Source: Carcharhinus longimanus | Lineage: Eukaryota | DNA length: 64,000 nucleotides | Direction of reading: 5' to 3' | Assembly (NCBI GenBank): GCA_030264375.1 | Contig: JASCQW010000190.1 | Coordinates: forward strand, 105,915,700-105,979,699 | Part shown: positions 3,969-49,619 of the stretch, in pieces | How positions within the stretch are numbered: position 1 is the first letter of the stretch | Layout of the letters: each line of letters begins with the position of its first letter | Program-made: the position numbers and the translations under genes | The notes under the pieces: generated by a model | Told to the model about the DNA's origin: nothing | What the model saw: the letters and a program-made list of their open reading frames with translations, nothing else | Database searches by the model: none

Positions 3969-5416
3969 TTGCAGGGATAACATTATAACAACAAAATGCC
4001 TTTTCTAAAAAAACTATAAATTACATGCTACTCAGATGGGATTTTGATTTCACGTGATCTGGGCTAGTTTCGACTGCTTGAATGGTATCGGAGAGGAATT
4101 TTACCCCTTATTTGCCCCTAGGTTTATATGATTGCGAGTGGGGTGGGCAGGTGACAACTGTTTGACCCTGATGCTTCAGCCATCAGGCGTGTGGGGCAGT
4201 ATTGATGGACCAGCTGCTCTTTCTCTGCGGATCACTTTTGCACGTTGGTATGAATTAAACAGTAGCATTATCTTACAAAACACTGCCCAACAGTCACGGA
4301 GCCTGTGAATTTTTTTTCAACAATCTCTATTCAAAGGCATGGCTGCCACATTGGGTAATCCTGAAAAAAAATAGTTTTGATGCAGAGATTACAATGCCAA
4401 TGAGAGCAGTGGGATGTAACAACGTGTACACCCCTCTAGACTGACTGTTCCAGCAGACTAAATCACAAAAAGGCAATGTCCAAAAGGCAAGACATGAAGC
4501 CCATTTAGAACCTATTGCTTTAAACTGTTGAAGCAATTAGTATGAGGTTTAACAGAATTACTTTATATCAATTACCGAGTCACCACATATCAAGAGAGAT
4601 GCTTGTGATTGAAGGCAAGTTCAACCTCATTTTCAAGCCCCATCACTAGCTGTGTGCTAATATCTAAATCAGCTTGCTGTGCTCAGCAGACACTTCTCAG
4701 ATTAAATAAGAGACATGTCCTCATTCAACAGGGAAATTCATTGTGTAAGGAAGGCAACATACATCATAAAGGCCAAGTTTACTCTTCCCAGGGACATCAA
4801 AACATGATCCATTAATGAAAGTGGAACAGTCAATACTCCATTCTTCATGAACATGTGAAATTGCACATGATCAGTTTTCATCTTTTTAACAGTTTGGCTG
4901 CGAAGGCCGAGGATGAAGGTGATTAATGTGAGCCCGTGAGCTAACAAACTGAAACGGCTGCTGACTCTCTGTGCAGTACTCGCACTGTGAATTTGCCAAA
5001 CTGGACGAGAGAAAGAGAACTACAATTCAGGCCATCGTTAGTAAACTTGCACCTCTTCCCCCTTGTCAATCTCAGCACCAAAACATCTACAAGGGAGGGA
5101 ATATGTACCTACTTCCGTGTTTACAAGTCTGCCTGAAACTCCAAACCTGCCCCCCATCGCTAATTCGCCGGATTTAATTCCGTGTCAATTTCACACAGGG
5201 ACCAGTTGCCACTTTGTTACACGCCGTGCTGTTTCAGTCTGCTTCCTGCACAATTCAAAATCGCCATCCCACGACCTCCACCCTTCTCCACCTCCCCCAC
5301 CCCATTCCCAAGAAAAAGTTCCAACTTTAATAAACTTTTGGAAACTTTTGCAAAGTTGTCCTGAACTTTCTGAGCGACAGGATCGCCCCCACCCCCCTGC
5401 TCTTCCCCCAGCATAC

Positions 5417-5474
5417 CTGCCCGGATTAATAAATCCAAAGGGGTCCTGATCCCCTCGCAGACGGGAAAAGCCAT
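5417..5474 (-). CDS. ELF1: Alternative first coding exon of the ELF gene (MAFPVCEGIRTPLDLLIRA); an in-frame upstream ATG at 5552 is possible
   Basis: ATG at 5474, 19 codons plus 1 nt, donor GCAG|GTATGC (phase 1, same as the 23362 donor). The peptide resembles the recalled ELF2/NERF-1 N-terminus MATSLHEGPTNQLDLLIRA|VEAS. Lies just downstream of a CpG-rich promoter. Confidence 0.8.
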
Positions 5475-5479
5475 GGGGA

Positions 5480-5780
5480 AATCCGCTAGCTCTCCCTCCC
5501 TCCCTCCCTGTGCCACGTCTGGTTTCAGATGGGACACAGGAGCCGCTTCCATGGAGGTTACGTGGCGCCCTCTGGGCTCAGCCCGCCCAGTATCAGCTTT
5601 CCAGGCGAGATTTTCCCCCTTCGCTCTCTATCTTTCCCCGTTTTCCCAGACCGGAAGTGTTCGATCAAAGTGGGATATCAAACTCCATCCCAAACTTGGA
5701 GCTTCTTCCGGGATAGGACGGCAGAGCGCAGGCGCAGTGCTCACACCTCCACCTCCTCCCTGGGGCGGGACCTGATCCAG
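5480..5780 (-). promoter_or_regulatory. Internal CpG-rich TATA-less promoter with two ETS sites, an NRF1 site and a GC box
   Basis: ACCGGAAGTG at 5650-5659, CCCGGAAG on the minus strand at about 5705-5712, GCGCAGGCGCA at 5726-5736 and GGGGCGGGA at 5762-5770. CpG density at about 5000-5800 is visibly above the rest of the window. Confidence 0.8.
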
Positions 5781-6439
5781 CCGCTGCCAAACAGCCCTTA
5801 TGGTAGCAATGCCTCAATAGCCAAACTGGTGTTCTCTCCCACTCAGTCTCAGCGCAGCAAAATGCTGTAGAATTGCAAAGCATTTATCCACGGAAAAGCC
5901 CAGCTCCCAGGTTTTTTTTTTAAATTATGCTCCACGCCAGCCTTCCCCCCTATCCTACCTCATCTGACCCTATCAGCAATATTGTCCCCTCAACAGAAAA
6001 GGCCAGGGGCAACCAAATTCCCAGTACAATTGCAAATTCTCTCAGGCATGGGTTAAGCGGCAGCATGACAGATGCAGAAACAAGACTGCAGGAGGGGCTA
6101 ATCCACCATGCCCTGCTCCAAAGAAGATGATCGTGTTACACTGGTTACTTCAATCAGGACTAGCTCCAATAAAAAATAGGAAATGTTGGAAATACTCAGC
6201 AGGCCAGGCAGCATAAGGAGGTAGGGGGTTGGGGTTGGGGTTGGGGTGGGGGGAGGTAGGGGAGCAGGATTTTCTGGTCCTGTCAGCAGTGAGCATCATT
6301 GTGGATGGGACAGAAAAGTTTGGGAGAGCCTTTTGACCACGCCAAGTATCCCATCTTGCCCGTGACACTGCATGTCACAGGTGAGACTGGATGATACTTC
6401 CCAGAGTTAATGTACCCGGCTCAATGATCTATAAACTAA

Positions 6440-6745
6440 GGGTGGCATGGCAATGCAGTTGTTGGCGCTGCTGTCTCTCAGCCCCAGGGACCCAGGATCA
6501 ATTCCAGTCTTGGATGACTGTGTGGAGTTTGCATGTTCTCCCCGTATCTACGTGGGTTTCCTCCCACAGTCCAATGATGAACAAGTTACGTAGATAGGTC
6601 ATGCCAATTTATCCCTTAGTGTCCCAAGATGTGAAAGTTAGGGGGAGTAGCAGAGCGATCGGGCTTGTGTAAAATACTCTGTTGAAGAGTTGGTGCTGAC
6701 TCGATGGGCTGAGTGGCCTCCTTCTGCACTGCAGGGATTCAATGA
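6440..6745 (+). mobile_element. HE1-like SINE, tail A
   Basis: Same head, body and tail as the other copies. Confidence 0.8.
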
Positions 6746-11344: not shown

Positions 11345-11720
11345 TGGCAGCACAGTTTCCTCCCACATTCTGAAAGACAGGCTGGTTAGGTGCATTGACC
11401 TGAATAGGTGCCATAGTGTGGCGATTAGGGGAATTACACAGTAACTTCACTGCAGTGTTAATGTAAGCAAGTGGTTAGTACTGCTGCTTCACAGCGCCAG
11501 GGACCCAGGTTCGATTCCCTGTCTGTGGGTCACTGTCTGCGTGGAGTTTACACATTCTCCCCACATCTGCATGGGTTTCCCCCGGGTGCTCCGGTTTCCT
11601 CTCATATCCTGAAAGACGTGCTGGTTAGGTGCACTGACCTGAACAGCGACTAGGGGAATTACACAGTAACGTCATTGCAGTGTTAATGTAAGCCTTACTT
11701 GTGACTAATAAGTAAATTTT
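11345..11720 (+). mobile_element. HE1-like SINE, tail B: a 3' half followed in tandem by a near-full copy
   Basis: The segment TTTCCTC...GGGGAATTACACAGTAAC...GCAGTGTTAATGTAAGC occurs twice. Confidence 0.8.
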
Positions 11721-12319
11721 AATTCTCAAAGGCAACCAAGGATAGGCAACTAACTAATGCTGGTCTTGCCAATCACTAACATTCTGAGAATGATTCAAAA
11801 AAAAAGTTCCTACCAAACCAAAGTGATGGATGAAAAGCTAGCTTCAGGATCTCCGAAAAATTATGATCAGAGGTTTTGGAAGAAGTTGTACAAGTCAACG
11901 CACATTCTGAATGTAACACCACCAACCCCCACCCTCACCCCCACCAGTGAAACAGCACCTCTGCTTTCTCCCAGAGTGAGTTTTTCCAAAATACCCTCCC
12001 TATTAACACAACAGCAAAGACAAGAGCTTTAGGGCAGGACGGAAGATAAACCGTTCCGTGAATTATGACATGGGCAATAATCGCATTGCTTATCTCAATT
12101 TTCGGCCGAGGAGCCCAATTTCTTAAACAGTACATCACAATGATAGGCAATCACTTGATAACAATCCCTGTAACTCTTGAAAAGGTTTCTCAGATAAAAT
12201 AAAAACAGGCTCAACTTTAACCGGTTTTCAAAAGTGATCAACTGACAATCTCATCAAATTTCTGAAGCTGACTCAGTAATTGAATTGACACACTATAAAG
12301 GTTGAAGCCTCAGGCTGCA

Positions 12320-18320: not shown

Positions 18321-18544
18321 CTGTTCCATTCATTATAGAGGCAACTCCTGAACCAAAATCACAATTTCATTACGAAATAAAAAGAATTCTTAAATGTGAA
18401 TTTTAAATCAGACTTTTCATGGACACAAAGAGAACAGTTTCAATGACGGAGCCAATCTAAATGAATTGGGATAAGGGAAAAACTTACATTCATCTGGAAT
18501 TCACGTACAGTCTCAACCGGGCATAACAGCTTTAAAACAGCTTT

Positions 18545-20150
18545 TAAGAACATAAGAAATAGGAGCAGGAGTAGGCCATCTAGCCCTTCGAGCCTGCCCC
18601 GCCATTCAATAAGATNNNNNNNNNNNNNNNNNNNNNNNNNNNNNNNNNNNNNNNNNNNNNNNNNNNNNNNNNNNNNNNNNNNNNNNNNNNNNNNNNNNNN
18701 NNNNNNNNNNNNNNNNNNNNNNNNNNNNNNNNNNNNNNNNNNNNNNNNNNNNNNNNNNNNNNNNNNNNNNNNNNNNNNNNNNNNNNNNNNNNNNNNNNNN
18801 NNNNNNNNNNNNNNNNNNNNNNNNNNNNNNNNNNNNNNNNGGACGCCAAAGCTGCACACAATCCTCCATGTGTGGCCTCATCAATGCCCTATACAATTGC
18901 AGCAAAACATCCCTAACCCGATACTCAAATCCCCTTGCTCTGAAGGCCAACATATTATTTGCCTTCTTTACTGCCAGCTGTACCTGCACATTTACTTTCA
19001 GTGACTGATGCAGGAGGACTCCAAGGTCTCACTGAGTATCCACTTCTCTCAATTCAAACCAAGTAATAACTCGTCTTCCTATTATTGCTACTGAAGTGGA
19101 TAGCTTCATATTTATCCACATTATACTGCATCTGCCATGCAGATGCCCACATATTCAGCCTGTCCAAATCACACTGATCTCTGCATCCTCCTCACAGCTC
19201 ACCCTCCCACCCAACTTTGCACTGTCTGCAAATTTGGAGATAATACATTCAGTTCCCTTTTCCAAATCATTAATATATGTGAACAGTTGGGGTCCTAACA
19301 CAGACTGCAATGGAACCCAATAGTCACTGACTGCCAATTGGAAAAAGACTCATTTATGCCAACTCTTTGCTTCCTACCTGCTAACCAACTTTCTATCCAT
19401 CACAAGACAATATGTGCAATCCCATGTGCTTTAACTTTAAATAATAGTCTGTTATGTGAGACCTTGTCAAAAGCCTTCTGAAAGTCTAAATAAGCCACAT
19501 CCACTAGTTCTCCTCGGTCAGCTGTACTAGTCACATCCTCAAAAAATTTCCAATCGATTCATCGAGCATAATTTCCCTTCTGTAAATTCATGCTGCCTTT
19601 GTCTGATATACCATTGCCTTCCAAATGCCAAGTTGATAATAGAGTCTAGTAATTTCCCGAGTTAGGGTCACTGGTCTATCATTCCGCTTTCTCTCAATTT
19701 CCATTTTTGGATAGCAAGATTCCATTAGCTGTCTTCCGATCTGTAGGAACTATTCCAGAGTCCAAAGAATTTTGAAAAATAACCACTAGTGGATCTACTA
19801 TTTCCAGGGTTACTTCCTTATGTACTCTGGAAGGAAGATTATCAGGACCTGGAGATTAATCCACCATCAATTTCCCTAAAACCATTTCTCTACTAAAGCT
19901 GATTTTCTTCAGCTCCGCACTAAACCATGTTTCTCTCAGCACTTCTGGTACATTATTCATGTCTTCCTTTGTGAAGACTCAAGCAAAGTATAAATTTAAT
20001 TCCTCAATCATTTCTTTGTTCCCCATTATGAATTCTCCCGCTTCTGATTATAAGAGGCCTACATCAGTTTTTGTCAATCTTTTTCTTTTTACATATCTAT
20101 AAAAAAAATTACAGTCAGTTTATATGTTCGCCACTACCTCACTTTCATAC
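18545..20150 (-). mobile_element. CR1-type LINE, 5'-truncated and degenerate (RT region to 3' tail, spans a gap)
   Basis: ORF remnants VPLQSVLGPQLFTYINDL...ISKFAD and QVQLAVKKANNMLAF...LLQLYRALMRPH, with a (TTCTTATG)-type 3' tail at about 18545. Confidence 0.9.
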
Positions 20151-23361: not shown

Positions 23362-23527
23362 CTGAAAGACCAATGTTATCCTCTATTATCTGTTCTTCAA
23401 CAACATCCAACGATGTATCGTCCATCATCCTGGTGGAGACCTCATCGCAATCCAGGCTAGAATAGAACAAGTCTGTGTTTGGCACTTGTTCTACGATCAC
23501 TGCAGGAAACGACAGAGGGTCTTCAAG
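23362..23527 (-). CDS. ELF1: ELF1/ELF4-subfamily coding exon, acidic transactivation region (LEDPLSFPAVIVEQVPNTDLFYSSLDCDEVSTRMMDDTSLDVVEEQIIEDNIGLS)
   Basis: Acceptor CTTTTCTTTATACCCTAG|CTT and donor TCAG|GTGTGT. The 166 nt are open and in frame with the 36369-36440 exon. FPAVIVEQVP and SLDVxEEQII are Elf-1 N-terminal domain motifs. Ends in phase 1. Confidence 0.95.
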
Positions 23528-24430: not shown

Positions 24431-24899
24431 CACTTTAATGCTTTGAGTCCGTGTGACTCTTCTTCAGAGCAAAAGAGAAGGAGAAATGTGATGGCTTTTT
24501 GTTCCCTGGAGTGTGGGAGGAATGATGTGGGTNNNNNNNNNNNNNNNNNNNNNNNNNNNNNNNNNNNNNNNNNNNNNNNNNNNNNNNNNNNNNNNNNNNN
24601 NNNNNNNNNNNNNNNNNNNNNNNNNNNNNNNNNNNNNNNNNNNNNNNNNNNNNNNNNNNNNNNNNNNNNNNNNNNNNNNNNNNNNNNNNNNNNNNNNNNN
24701 NNNNNNNNNNNNNNNNNNNNNNNNNNNNNNNNNNNNNNNNNNNNNNNNNNNNNNNNNNNNNNNNNNNNNNNNNNNNNNNNNNNNNNNNNNNNNNNNNNNN
24801 NNNNNNNNNNNNNNNNNNNNNNNNNNNNNNNNNNNNNNNNNNNNNNNNNNNNNNNNNNNNNNNNNNNNNNNNNNNNNNNNNNNNNNNNNNNNNNNNNNN

Positions 24900-25344: not shown

Positions 25345-25610
25345 GCCCGGTGGCACAAATGGTTAGCAGTGCTGCCTCTAAGCGCCAGGGATCCAGGTTT
25401 GATTCCTGGCTTGGGTCGCTGTCTGCACATCCTCCTTGTCTGCATGGGTTTCCTCCGGGTGCTCCGGTTTCCTCCCACGGACCGAAAGATGTGCTGGCTA
25501 GGTACACTGACCCAAACAGGTGCCACTGCGTGGCGACTTGGGGAACTTCACAGTAGCTTCATTGCAATGTTAATGCAAGCCTTACTTGTGACCAATAAAT
25601 AAACTTTTAC
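25345..25610 (+). mobile_element. HE1-like SINE, tail B
   Basis: Head, body and an AATAAATAAAC end. Confidence 0.85.
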
Positions 25611-26957
25611 TTACAAATCAAAAAGTCTCGACAGTCTCTCCACTACCAACACCCATCCCAAAACTGTACTCTTCAATCGTTTAAAATACAAGCTCTATGT
25701 TACTGGATTCATCTCATCATTTTTTTTTTAAGTAAAATCACTTCCCTGCACAATGGGGTTTCCCTTGATTGCTCAATAATAATTTTAATGAATAAGGCTC
25801 CCCTCTGGGCGAGTCTGATGTGGAGCAAAAAAATAAGGCCTCCAAGAACTTTACTGTCTAATATTTACTCATTAAAAATACAAACTATTCCTACCTTCTG
25901 AAATCAGAACATTAAAACATTTCTATTAGGCATGAATAAATGAAAAAATTATAATTAGAAACCGTTTAGTGCCAAGAACAGGGCACAGCTAAGGTGGTGT
26001 GGGGGAGGGGTTCAGGTGTTGTGCAGGGGCTTATGNNNNNNNNNNNNNNNNNNNNNNNNNNNNNNNNNNNNNNNNNNNNNNNNNNNNNNNNNNNNNNNNN
26101 NNNNNNNNNNNNNNNNNNNNNNNNNNNNNNAGGAAGCAATTTGAAAACTGGACTCCTGTCACACACAAATTAACTACCTGAAAGTAACAGGCAGTGAAAG
26201 GAAAGCTATTTGGATGCTTTTGAGGCTCTCCCTAGGACAGGAGTTTAAATCCAGGTTGACAGTGCTTTACTTTCTGATGCCTCTGGGGGCCCAATGTGAA
26301 ATTGGTTTCTAGGTGCCCAAAGCACAAAGTTGCTCTTAATTTGGTAGTAAATTGGCAATCTCATCCTGAGTGGCCATTGGATGGTTATGAGGGCAGTGAG
26401 AATGTTTGCACTGATGCTCTTTTGTAGCTCGGATAGACTAGAGGCCACTTAAGTACAAAGCTACTTAACCTGGAACTATTCCTTGCTCATCCAGGTTGCC
26501 CTTGACATGGAAAATGTTCTATTCCCCAGCACCTTGCTTGATGAAGTGAAAAAGATAAAAATTAAAGTGCAGGAATTTCAGTGGCCCATTAACTTTTGAT
26601 TTTGTTCCTGTGGAATGGGCTCATTCAAAGATTGGACAGTGACGTACTTAAAGGATTAGAAAGAAATCTTGTTACAGGATTCAGCTCATAGGTTTTAATG
26701 GAAGCTGGCATGTTTTACCAAACAATGATGACTTGCTGATAAGTTCTAGGTTACATTGACTTTTCCTGTGAACAGGCTCCTTAACTGCTGCCAATTTAGG
26801 TACTTTAATGTTTATAGCTCCTGCATTTTCAGTCAGGACAAAACTGACATCATTGCACAAGATGCCCACATTTACTCTCCCGATCCCAGGGGTAGATTGG
26901 TAAATCACAGACACCCTAAACAGAAAGGTGCCTTTCATTCTGGTTTAGTGGGGAGGA

Positions 26958-36368: not shown

Positions 36369-36440
36369 CTGGTGTCCGTCATCCATTCCGTTGCTAGCAA
36401 ATTCAAACACCAGCTCGGACTGTTGGACCGCAGCAGCCAT
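36369..36440 (-). CDS. ELF1: ELF1/ELF4-subfamily ETS transcription factor, first coding exon of the long isoform ([24 protein letters not shown])
   Basis: Manual translation of the minus strand from ATG at 36440 gives 24 codons ending at donor CAG|GTAGGT (phase 0). It matches the recalled human ELF1 [24 protein letters not shown] and ELF4 [25 protein letters not shown]. ELF1 versus ELF4 orthology is not resolved. Confidence 0.93.
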
Positions 36441-42359: not shown

Positions 42360-42670
42360 GGGTGGCAATGGTAGCACAGTGGTTAGCATTACTGCCTCAC
42401 AGCGCCAATGACCTAAGTTCAATTCTCATCTTGGGTCACTGTCTGTGTGGAGCCTGCACATTCTCCCCGTGTCTGCATGGGTTTCCTCCAGGTGTCCTGT
42501 TTACCTCCCACAATCTGAAAGACGTGCTGGTTAGATGCACTGCCCATGCTAAAGTTCTCCCTCAGTGTACCCGAAGAGGCGCCGGGGTGTGGTGGCTAGG
42601 AGATTTTCACAGCAACTTCATTGCAGTGTTAATGTAAGCCTACTTGTGACAATAATAAATAAACTTTAAG
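42360..42670 (+). mobile_element. HE1-like SINE, tail B
   Basis: Full-length copy. Confidence 0.85.
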
Positions 42671-43584
42671 CTTGGTCTACAAATCAACCCCTGTTTTTGG
42701 AAAGATTTTGAGGGAATTCAATGATCAACTTATACGCCAATATCTGCAGTACTTGTAAATTCTGGATTATGTTTTTTTTAAATACGCATTTGACATGCAA
42801 AAGATACTAACAGAAGCAAGACAAAATGATTTTGGCTTCTCTGCTGGTAGATCAAAGTCCCTGAAGACAATCATACTCTGACATGTTATTGCTAAATCCG
42901 TGAACTGTTCAACACAGGCATGAAGAATGATGATAAAACTGACTGCTTACTTCCTTTCTAATCTGAAGATGGACCATCATTATCATTACAAAAACTCAAA
43001 GGAAATGACTTGTATAAATGATGCTGGTAATAGCCTGCTATGTTTTCCTGTCACTGAAATACAGCAGAGTCTCGGAGGTGGGACCACCATACCAATGGGT
43101 TTTTCCTTGTAATGATGATGCAAGTAATTTTGTATACTCTAATTAACTCCACCATTATCCACACTGATTTTTCTGCCAATTGCACATTGCCCTGCATTAA
43201 TCCAACAGTGTAGCTGTTAGAAAGGTTATCTCTTTTCTCTGTTCACTGTGAAATTGGACATGCAAGGTTCACTACCAATCGTAAACAGGGGAGAAAGAAA
43301 ATCTTTCCTACGACCGTCAAACAGCCACACAGTTCCACTAAATAGTTATCAGCAGCGCCTGACTGACAGATGGGCTCTGTGTTTGCAACGCAGAACTGAG
43401 GGAAAATGAGAACTCTGCATCTTATGGAACACGGCCGTGTTGTGTGAATTTTTATTTGGATTGACACGAGCTGACACGCAGCTCGGTAGTGTCTATCCGA
43501 GGAAATTTCTGACACAAGAAATCGCATCTCAAAGAAGCTATTCGCAGGTTTTCCGTTAGTCCAGCTTCCAATTATTCAGTCTTG

Positions 43585-48157: not shown

Positions 48158-48475
48158 TGGTGGCACAGTGATTAGCATTGCTGCCTCACAGTGCCAGAGA
48201 CATGGGTTCAATTCTGGCCTCAGGTCACTGTCCGTGTGGAGTTTGCACAATTCTCCCCGAGTCTGAATGTGTTTCCTTTGGGTGCTCCAGTTTCATCCCA
48301 CACTCCAAAGATGTGCGGGTTAGGCTGACTGGCCACGCTGAATTGCCCCTTAATGTCGGGAGATTAGCAGGGTAAATATGTGAAGTGACGAAGATAGGAC
48401 CTAAGTGGGACTGTTGTTGATGCAGGCTCGACGGGCTGAATGGCCTCCTTCTGCACTGTAGGGTTCTATGATTCT
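48158..48475 (+). mobile_element. HE1-like SINE, tail A
   Basis: Full-length copy. Confidence 0.85.
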
Positions 48476-48514
48476 GTAAAATATTTCAATAGGATTTAAG
48501 TAGAAATGGATTAG

Positions 48515-48800
48515 AAAGTAAAGTTTATTTACTAGTCACAAGTAAGGCTTGCATTAACATTGCAATGCAGTTACTATGAAATTCCCCAAGTCGCCACATT
48601 CCGGCACCTATTTGAGCCAATGCACTTAACCAGCATGTCTCTCAGAATGTGGGAGGAAACCAGAGCACCCAGAGAAAACCCGTACAGACACAGGGAGAAC
48701 GTGCCAACTCCACACAGACAGTGACCCAAGCCAGTAATTGAACCTGGGTCCCCAGCACTGTAAAGCAGCAGTGCTAACCACTGTGCTACCGTGCCACCCC
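48515..48800 (-). mobile_element. HE1-like SINE, tail B
   Basis: Reverse-complement copy, tail-to-tail with the previous SINE. Confidence 0.85.
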
Positions 48801-49619
48801 AATTATGGTACTGCTTTGCTCTCAAATAGAATAATGGCAAATCTCTTGCCCAATTATTGACCACAGTGTGTTTTCAGAGCCTGTCATGGTGAAGACAAGA
48901 TGCTAATGGTTATTGTGAAACCAGAATGTTCCGGGTTAGAGCAGGACTGAAGCGCCAAGGAAATTGCTGGGATGCCTTCAACAACCTGTCTCAGATTGCA
49001 CACCTACACTTTCAGCACACTTAAGTTGGTTCCACTCCAAAGCTCACAGACCTGCTGCCAGTTTTGGGGAAGTAATGGCTCGCTGCCAAGTCATGTCCAT
49101 TACAAAGCAGAACGAGTGCCAACTTATAAAAATTTTTAGACCTTAACCCCACTGAGGACAACGCCGCCATCTATGGCATCAAAATTCCGCGCTATAAAAA
49201 GACATGGTCAGTTAATGTTCAATCAGGAAAAGTACGTGTTGCTTTCTGATGTATTTCCCACCAAATCCTTTCAAAGGAATACTTTTACTTACATGTTGTA
49301 CTGTTATTACCCACCCCCCGCCCCCCCAAACCCCATCCCCACATTCAATTGGGAGAGGAGGGAAAGGTGTTCAAAGCTCAAGGTGAGCGAATCCTGGGAT
49401 CAGCTCTTGCCCCATCAGCCATGACTTGGCCAGCATCACAGAGGAATCCCAATCTGAGTGCAAACAGGGTTTCCGCTGAACTTTCACCCAAGGAATTCCG
49501 GAGGAGCTGGGACAGACTTCCTGTCACATGATGCTGGCTTTGTCAGGCATACAAGGGATGGTGGGGGGGCGGAGGTGGTGCAGATTGTCAAGGATGGTGA
49601 ATGAGAAACAATAGTTCAC

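Follow-up and report, generated by a model that had tools for sequence, protein, structure and literature searches.

Human and mouse ELF2B starts from exon IB, which has its own promoter, P3, and supplies 19 unique residues (PMC5371273; published sources are cited here from the parts available). A first-pass annotation of a stretch of Carcharhinus longimanus DNA had pointed to a similar start inside an ELF1/ELF4 gene. The window analysed here is that whole stretch of 64,000 nucleotides, on contig JASCQW010000190.1 (C190 below). The locus raises the question of whether the shark start is a homologue of exon IB, in which paralogue it sits, how old it is and what its protein would do. In our assessment it is quite probably an alternative first exon of a likely ELF4 gene, homologous to the ELF2B exon, and would likely yield a short isoform that dampens ELF-driven transcription. 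This kind of isoform is already known from ELF2B, and the shark isoforms sit in RefSeq as unremarked predictions. What is new is that an ELF1-type paralogue has this exon too, in the corresponding intron, and that the ELF1-type genes of chimaera, sturgeon and bichirs share it.

Splice geometry of the alternative first exon

On the minus strand, an ATG at 5474 opens 19 codons (MAFPVCEGIRTPLDLLIRA) that are followed by one G and the donor GTATGC; the coding part is 58 nt long (5474-5417) and ends in phase 1. The acidic FPAVIVEQVP exon of the long isoform has its donor 17,887 nt from the alternative ATG (17.9 kb upstream). In 200 kb of flanking genome, the VEAS exon was located 13,843 nt past the donor of the alternative exon, and beyond it come further exons, two ETS exons among them. 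Because both donors are of phase 1 and the VEAS exon opens with TG GAA GCT, V-E-A-S is read in frame from either donor. The first-pass annotation had described the ATG, the peptide and its phase-1 donor after CAG, with an acidic exon of the same phase about 18 kb away, and both descriptions are accurate. Its proposal that the two starts splice interchangeably to one next exon agrees with the geometry, since the VEAS exon has been located and both donors restore the frame. The features are collected in Table 1.

Table 1. Features of the window gene around its alternative first exon (window positions unless a contig is named)
Feature	Position	Strand	Basis
Phase-1 splice donor GTATGC after CAG	5411..5416	-	Sequence; use inferred from annotated isoforms of relatives
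Alternative first exon, coding part (ELF2 exon IB type; 19 codons and one base)	5417..5474	-	Sequence; annotated shark proteins such as XP_078067821.1 carry this N-terminus ahead of VEAS
Likely internal promoter and 5' leader (local CpG maximum; ETS-like sites 5651, 5705; GC boxes 5583, 5763)	5475..5800	-	Sequence motifs; such short motifs are common by chance
Upstream in-frame ATG, 26 more residues possible	5550..5552	-	Sequence; comparable ATG in four carpet-shark models
Acidic exon of the long isoform (LEDPLSFPAVIVEQVP...), 166 nt, phase 0 to phase 1, absent from the short isoform	23362..23527	-	Sequence; Pfam Elf-1_N positions 25-76, E 3.3e-15
Start-codon exon of the long isoform (MAAAVQQSELVFEF...), phase 0	36369..36440	-	Sequence; Pfam Elf-1_N positions 1-23, E 3.9e-6
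Shared VEAS exon, outside the window	C190:105907165-105907272	-	Pyrimidine tract and CAG precede; opens TG GAA GCT

The four carpet-shark models start at the ATG comparable to 5552, and the extension is poorly conserved. An out-of-frame ATG at 5688 (minus strand) opens a 7-codon upstream frame. A Scyliorhinus torazame model (P0137) enters VEAS after reading the exon in a different frame, a sign of a possible second donor located a few bases upstream. A Pfam search gave no domain match for the alternative exon itself.

A CpG maximum at the putative internal promoter

The stretch 5401-5800 has a GC content of 0.59, a CpG observed/expected (o/e) ratio of 0.60 and 20 CpG, which makes it the highest 400-nt stretch of the window for CpG (median 5; window o/e 0.30). 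The CpG-rich promoter of the earlier reading is therefore CpG-rich, at the window maximum and as a borderline island, whereas its promoter role is putative. The exon site is a local CpG maximum or the only CpG island in all three paralogues of this genome (C190, C98 and C1, identified below). One 161-nt contig covers 5543-5701 and none covers the exon or its joint; the contig comes from a small share of a single sequencing run of guessed RNA origin, and this result is uninformative on expression.

A strong CpG island (o/e 1.04) near C190 105.873 Mb, some 43 kb past the first base of the window, is probably the promoter of the next gene. The window also contains about ten dispersed SINE-like repeat copies in both orientations (e.g. 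6452-6564, 11398-11730, 25360-25617, 42373-42676 and 48162-48802) and simple-repeat tracts near 485-710, 18523-18746 and 24443-24664, all of them ordinary intronic repeats.

Homology to human ELF2B

The shark exon occupies the place of exon IB, between the acidic and VEAS exons and with the same splice phase, and encodes an N-terminus of about 19 residues that ends in LDLLIRA. Against the 19-residue start of human ELF2B, as given by a clone sequence in the available part of the PMC11014633 supplement, it is identical at 11 of 19 residues, gapless, of equal length and compatible in junction phase. In the same supplement, clone ELF2-2 reads MATSLHEGPTNQLDLLIRA and then VEAS, and the long clone ELF2-1 joins at the same codon. 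The likeness to ELF2B/NERF-1 that had been proposed is thus confirmed by identity, length and phase, and the comparison argues that the shark exon is homologous to exon IB of human ELF2B.

As in ELF2B (NERF-1a/1b; PMC5371273, in part), the promoter, putative in the shark, is placed between the acidic and VEAS exons, the acidic region is lost and the ETS domain is kept. Unlike ELF2B, the shark exon sits in an ELF4-type paralogue, has only M, A, E and G in common with it over the first 12 residues, and has a possible 26-residue upstream extension. The ELF2B start was found in 6 of 42 matches of the representatives search, Tetraodon ELF2 among them; the spliced shark N-terminus as query gave 32 matches from 47 candidates, with no ELF2 among them. 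Insect E74A and E74B are promoter isoforms of an ELF orthologue. They likewise combine alternative promoters and different N-termini with a common ETS domain, and this likeness may be convergent.

Identity of the gene

Pfam PF12310 on three exons, together with PF00178, places the window gene in the ELF1/2/4 subfamily. Its ETS exon is identical at 61 of 63 residues to human ELF1 (chain 8bzm) and at 60 of 63 to ELF2 (chain 9igj). Three close loci were found with the ETS exon, namely the window gene on C190 and loci on C98 (97%) and C1 (94%), and the VEAS exon leads to the identical three. The ELF2-specific exons (YPAVIVEPVPSARL and VEASVH..CTDKT) match human ELF2 clones; they sit at C1 and are absent from the window gene. 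This rules out ELF2 for the window gene and, with the third locus C1 being ELF2, upholds the earlier assignment to ELF1/ELF4. A NatA family search of the genome found a single NatA-subunit locus, about 0.26 Mb from the C1 locus, and gave no locus near C98.

The window gene is most likely ELF4. The sole AIF_C (AIFM1-type) locus, at C190:106.21 Mb, is separated by about 0.26 Mb from the window gene's start-codon exon, and in the human genome ELF4 lies beside AIFM1. A BCOR/BCORL1-type match is on C190 too, but 15.7 Mb from the window gene. In a tree of 25 chosen rows, which has no mammalian ELF4 row and an ELF2 row 17% filled, the window gene is nested with Callorhinchus 'Elf-4-like' (95/100), and an ELF1 clade of mammals and C98 stands apart from it at 90/97. 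At this node C98 is joined to the ELF1 proteins of amphibians, reptiles, birds and mammals, and it has SRLWGK in common with human ELF1; its ELF1 synteny is only chromosome-level, because MRPS31 shares the C98 contig at a distance of 46 Mb. What counts against the ELF4 call is the make-up of this tree, whose ELF1/ELF4 split has a bootstrap of 90, and the RefSeq label, which is 'Elf-1' on most window-gene orthologues among the matches listed. RefSeq calls the ELF4-type proteins of cartilaginous fishes mostly 'Elf-1' and the ELF1-type ones 'Elf-1-like', and this naming hides the orthology.

The exon in the other paralogues and its age

The ELF1-type locus carries an intact exon at C98:37767891-37767945, which reads MATALYEGRNQLDLLIKA and one G before GTAAG and has a phase-1 donor. 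Its intron is the one that separates the acidic and VEAS exons, and the site is a local CpG maximum. At the ELF2 locus on C1, the acidic-VEAS intron holds the sole CpG island within 100 kb. Inside the island is a recognisable start; over its first ten codons, 7 of 10 residues agree with the ELF1 exon. Next comes a 111-nt insert that contains an in-frame stop, and after it the LDLL core with a donor that falls one base short of phase 1. The insert has GT/AG bounds and two small hairpin-like repeats. The ELF2 copy looks like a decayed exon, and its state could reflect decay, a gained intron or an assembly error; this reading comes from one assembly, in which the intron of 35,885 bases includes 4,382 N, with 3,872 of these directly upstream of the island.

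Because the ELF1-type copy lies in the same intron, while the ELF2 copy looks decayed, the exon is likely older than the paralogues, with uneven loss afterwards. The C98 exon gives strong new support to the earlier suggestion that the exon is older than the duplications behind ELF1, ELF2 and ELF4. The single ancestral ELF gene would have had the exon, and ELF1, ELF2 and ELF4 would have kept or lost their copies separately in each lineage. Alternatively, the exon was born in one paralogue and copied to the others by gene conversion after the duplications, which would make it not ancestral. The ELF1 and ELF2 versions (MAT..EG..NQ) are indeed nearer to each other than to ELF4. However, the N-terminal half is stable in each paralogue across species (MAFP.. 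in ELF4, MAT.. in ELF1), intron position and phase are identical while codon use is divergent, and two separate ancient events between chromosomes would be required. We therefore regard such copying as very improbable.

An ancestral, working exon has also to be weighed against a chance intronic match, or a relic that is silent in this species. The strict back-translated pattern with donor has one match in the 2.68-Gb genome. A looser pattern is expected 0.8 times genome-wide, so that location and not the motif alone bears the weight, and 5e-6 times per 32-kb intron; it matches once in the 264-kb region of the window gene, once in 100 kb of C98 and nowhere in 100 kb of C1. Since the pattern was composed after the match was seen, it is its return at the matching position of a second paralogue that counts as independent evidence. 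The genome-wide expectation is what chance has in its favour; against it stand the tiny expectation in this intron, the intact ATG, frame and donor, and an identical peptide annotated in Mustelus. DNA contigs of relatives also have no substitution in the exon among the differences listed, 58 nt alone being too short for significance. A chance match or silent relic is hardly credible on this evidence.

Distribution among vertebrates

Among the matches listed from RefSeq or UniRef, an ELF4-type isoform with the exon is present in 12 of 13 shark species, which fall into six orders in our grouping: Mustelus, Carcharodon, Cetorhinus, two Scyliorhinus, Chiloscyllium punctatum, Hemiscyllium, Stegostoma, Rhincodon, Heterodontus, Heptranchias and Pristiophorus. 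C. plagiosum is the one shark among these matches without an annotated ELF4-type exon. Among the annotated proteins of the same matches, the ELF4-type exon was found in none of nine ray species, none of three chimaera proteins and no bony fish. Conservation in other cartilaginous fishes, on which the earlier reading had staked itself, thus holds for sharks but not for rays or chimaera ELF4.

The annotated shark isoforms are XP_ predictions from automated models. The RefSeq/UniRef 'Elf-1 isoform X2-X4' entries (XP_078067821.1, XP_041051089.1 and XP_067852979.1) have the exon joined to VEAS as in the window gene, with the Mustelus peptide identical; they differ in that no ELF2B link is stated and that they are mostly called Elf-1, though synteny and tree point to ELF4. 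With the isoform in automated annotation of many sharks, an unannotated exon is ruled out. The second N-terminus is accordingly not hidden, as had been claimed, and the accompanying guess that it may already be annotated in non-mammalian genomes was right.

The set of 288 stored proteins, with the matches of the representatives search left out, was divided by a crude marker into 106 ELF4-type and 174 ELF1-type proteins, and the exon stands at the start of at least 13 of the former and at least 13 of the latter. The ELF1-type carriers are a chimaera, five sharks, the sterlet, two bichirs and one Logan protein that groups with amphibian ELF1. The Logan protein is encoded whole on a 2,981-nt contig, which is therefore likely a transcript. 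No named amphibian or amniote ELF1 with the exon is among the matches listed. The survey covered the best 120 of 177 matches and 30 clusters, with 15 of 308 and 15 of 44 members in large clusters; because they rest on annotation and on a partial listing of matches and clusters, the absences are weak. The 45-residue unspliced frame, when compared with longer proteins, gave 9 candidates and 0 matches, and this blank is a failure of sensitivity because such proteins exist. In Latimeria, an ELF4-type protein (P0182, XP_064422694.1) has a 20-residue alternative start with the same joining point and a faint likeness, perhaps a diverged homologue.

The short protein and its likely dampening effect

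The proposed mechanism is that the internal CpG-rich promoter drives a transcript in which 79 acidic N-terminal residues are swapped for 19 near-neutral ones. The long N-terminus has 18 D/E and 1 K/R in 79 residues, versus 2 and 2 in 19 for the short one (Mustelus pair). With its ETS domain kept, the short isoform would recognise the sites that full-length ELF proteins bind, compete with those proteins and be a weaker activator. The LDLLI-x-A core and the first residues of the shared exon may form an amphipathic helix that likely binds a cofactor. L-D-L-L-I is invariant in 16 of 16 distinct 12-residue ends that pass the motif filter, and its neighbours vary; outside the filter, Pristiophorus is the one shark exception, with the core LDFLIRA. 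In an AlphaFold model (mean pLDDT 36.5), a helix at residues 12-23 spans the splice junction with a pLDDT of about 55, and the highest hydrophobic moments coincide with it.

By analogy with human ELF2B, we infer an attenuator function in sharks. In one-hybrid data in the available part of the PMC11014633 supplement, the log2 activation is 6.03 for the long ELF2 clone and 3.23 for a short one, and about 2.75 for another short clone as derived from a listed difference. The short human forms are thus 7- to 10-fold weaker than the long one and still active. The term repressor is too strong because these clones still activate, and their residual activation rules out an outright repressor.

It may instead be that the internal promoter is what matters, that the product merely lacks the activation region, and that the peptide is a start-codon carrier or is bypassed through the methionine of METIEAAE. 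Several annotated isoforms start at METIEAAE (P0136, P0150, P0157 and P0166), the annotation of the nine ray species has no coding exon, and the ELF2 copy on C1 retains its CpG island while its frame looks broken. Against this, the LDLLI core is nearly invariant over three paralogues, whereas synonymous positions and neighbours differ. Furthermore, the antiproliferative effect of human ELF2B is gone without its 19 residues, and the inhibitory effect is gone in human ELF2 without either N-terminus (PMC5371273, in part). Because deletion of the 19 residues abolishes the human effect, the peptide does more than start translation. A promoter-only role is distinctly unlikely, and we retain the reading in which the peptide itself contributes.

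A possible SIN3-interaction helix

A sharper form of this reading, possible but doubtful at present, adds to a real and ancestral exon a Mad-type SIN3-interaction helix, which LDLLIRA and VEAS would form across the junction and which would recruit SIN3-HDAC. LLIRA conforms to LLXXA and partially to the Mad consensus phi-Z-Z-phi-phi-X-A-A-X-X-phi (PMC1557813, in part), and the LLXXA motif is absent from the long N-terminus. The predicted helix 12-23 crosses the junction and has the highest hydrophobic moments. In the part of PMC8828895 available, 3 of 102 BioID baits (ELF2, KLF9 and SP7) have SIN3B as prey, and ELF1 and ELF4 do not; SAP130 and SDS3 list ELF2, and ELF1 and ELF4 are not in the first five rows of each, in bait order. 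The inhibitory phenotype of ELF2B also needs the 19 residues (PMC5371273).

However, the full Mad consensus is not matched, since V replaces the second A and the last hydrophobic position is occupied by S, and AAEAL in the shared exon, a full match to A[AV]X[VA][LV], is common to both isoforms. The BioID bait is ELF2 of unspecified isoform, proximity is not binding, and PHF12 and EMSY are preys of ELF1 and ELF4 as well (PMC8828895). Activation by the short ELF2 clones persists in the one-hybrid assay (PMC11014633). The shark helix, as predicted, resembles the Mad/Mxi1- and KLF-type SIN3-interaction helices (PMC1557813) as a short amphipathic helix with LLXXA, but its core fits the consensus only in part. 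The segment TIEAAEALL of the shared VEAS exon hardly varies, if at all, between paralogues and is predicted to be helical at 31-41. The genome has three PAH-domain matches, each a single-exon piece.

Implications for the ELF family

In the parts of the literature covered, which include PMC9691287, PMC11942252 and 10.1101/2024.06.07.596542 and leave most subscription papers, the original NERF papers among them, outside, a homologous exon in ELF1/ELF4 or its ancestry was not found in print. Two zebrafish papers (PMC9691287 and PMC11942252) do not mention the isoforms in the parts available, and 'elf2b' is a gene name there. ELF2B has been treated as a peculiarity of ELF2, and the available text of PMC5371273 only speculates on a partner of its 19-residue N-terminus. 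Three paralogous versions, separate since early jawed vertebrates, narrow the functional core to L-D-L-L-I-x-A, which is a direct target for mutagenesis, with SIN3 as a candidate partner.

A bolder scenario, which we rate as unlikely, is that the ancestral vertebrate ELF gene had an activator/repressor switch with a SIN3-binding helix made only by the exon IB-VEAS splice. This switch would have been shared out reciprocally after genome duplication, with mammals keeping it in ELF2 alone and sharks in ELF1 and ELF4, their ELF2 copy having decayed. The exon itself would offer a clean case of an isoform switch that is older than the duplication of its family and was unevenly lost later. Such an uneven loss may help explain why mammalian ELF1, ELF2 and ELF4 differ over an inhibitory form.
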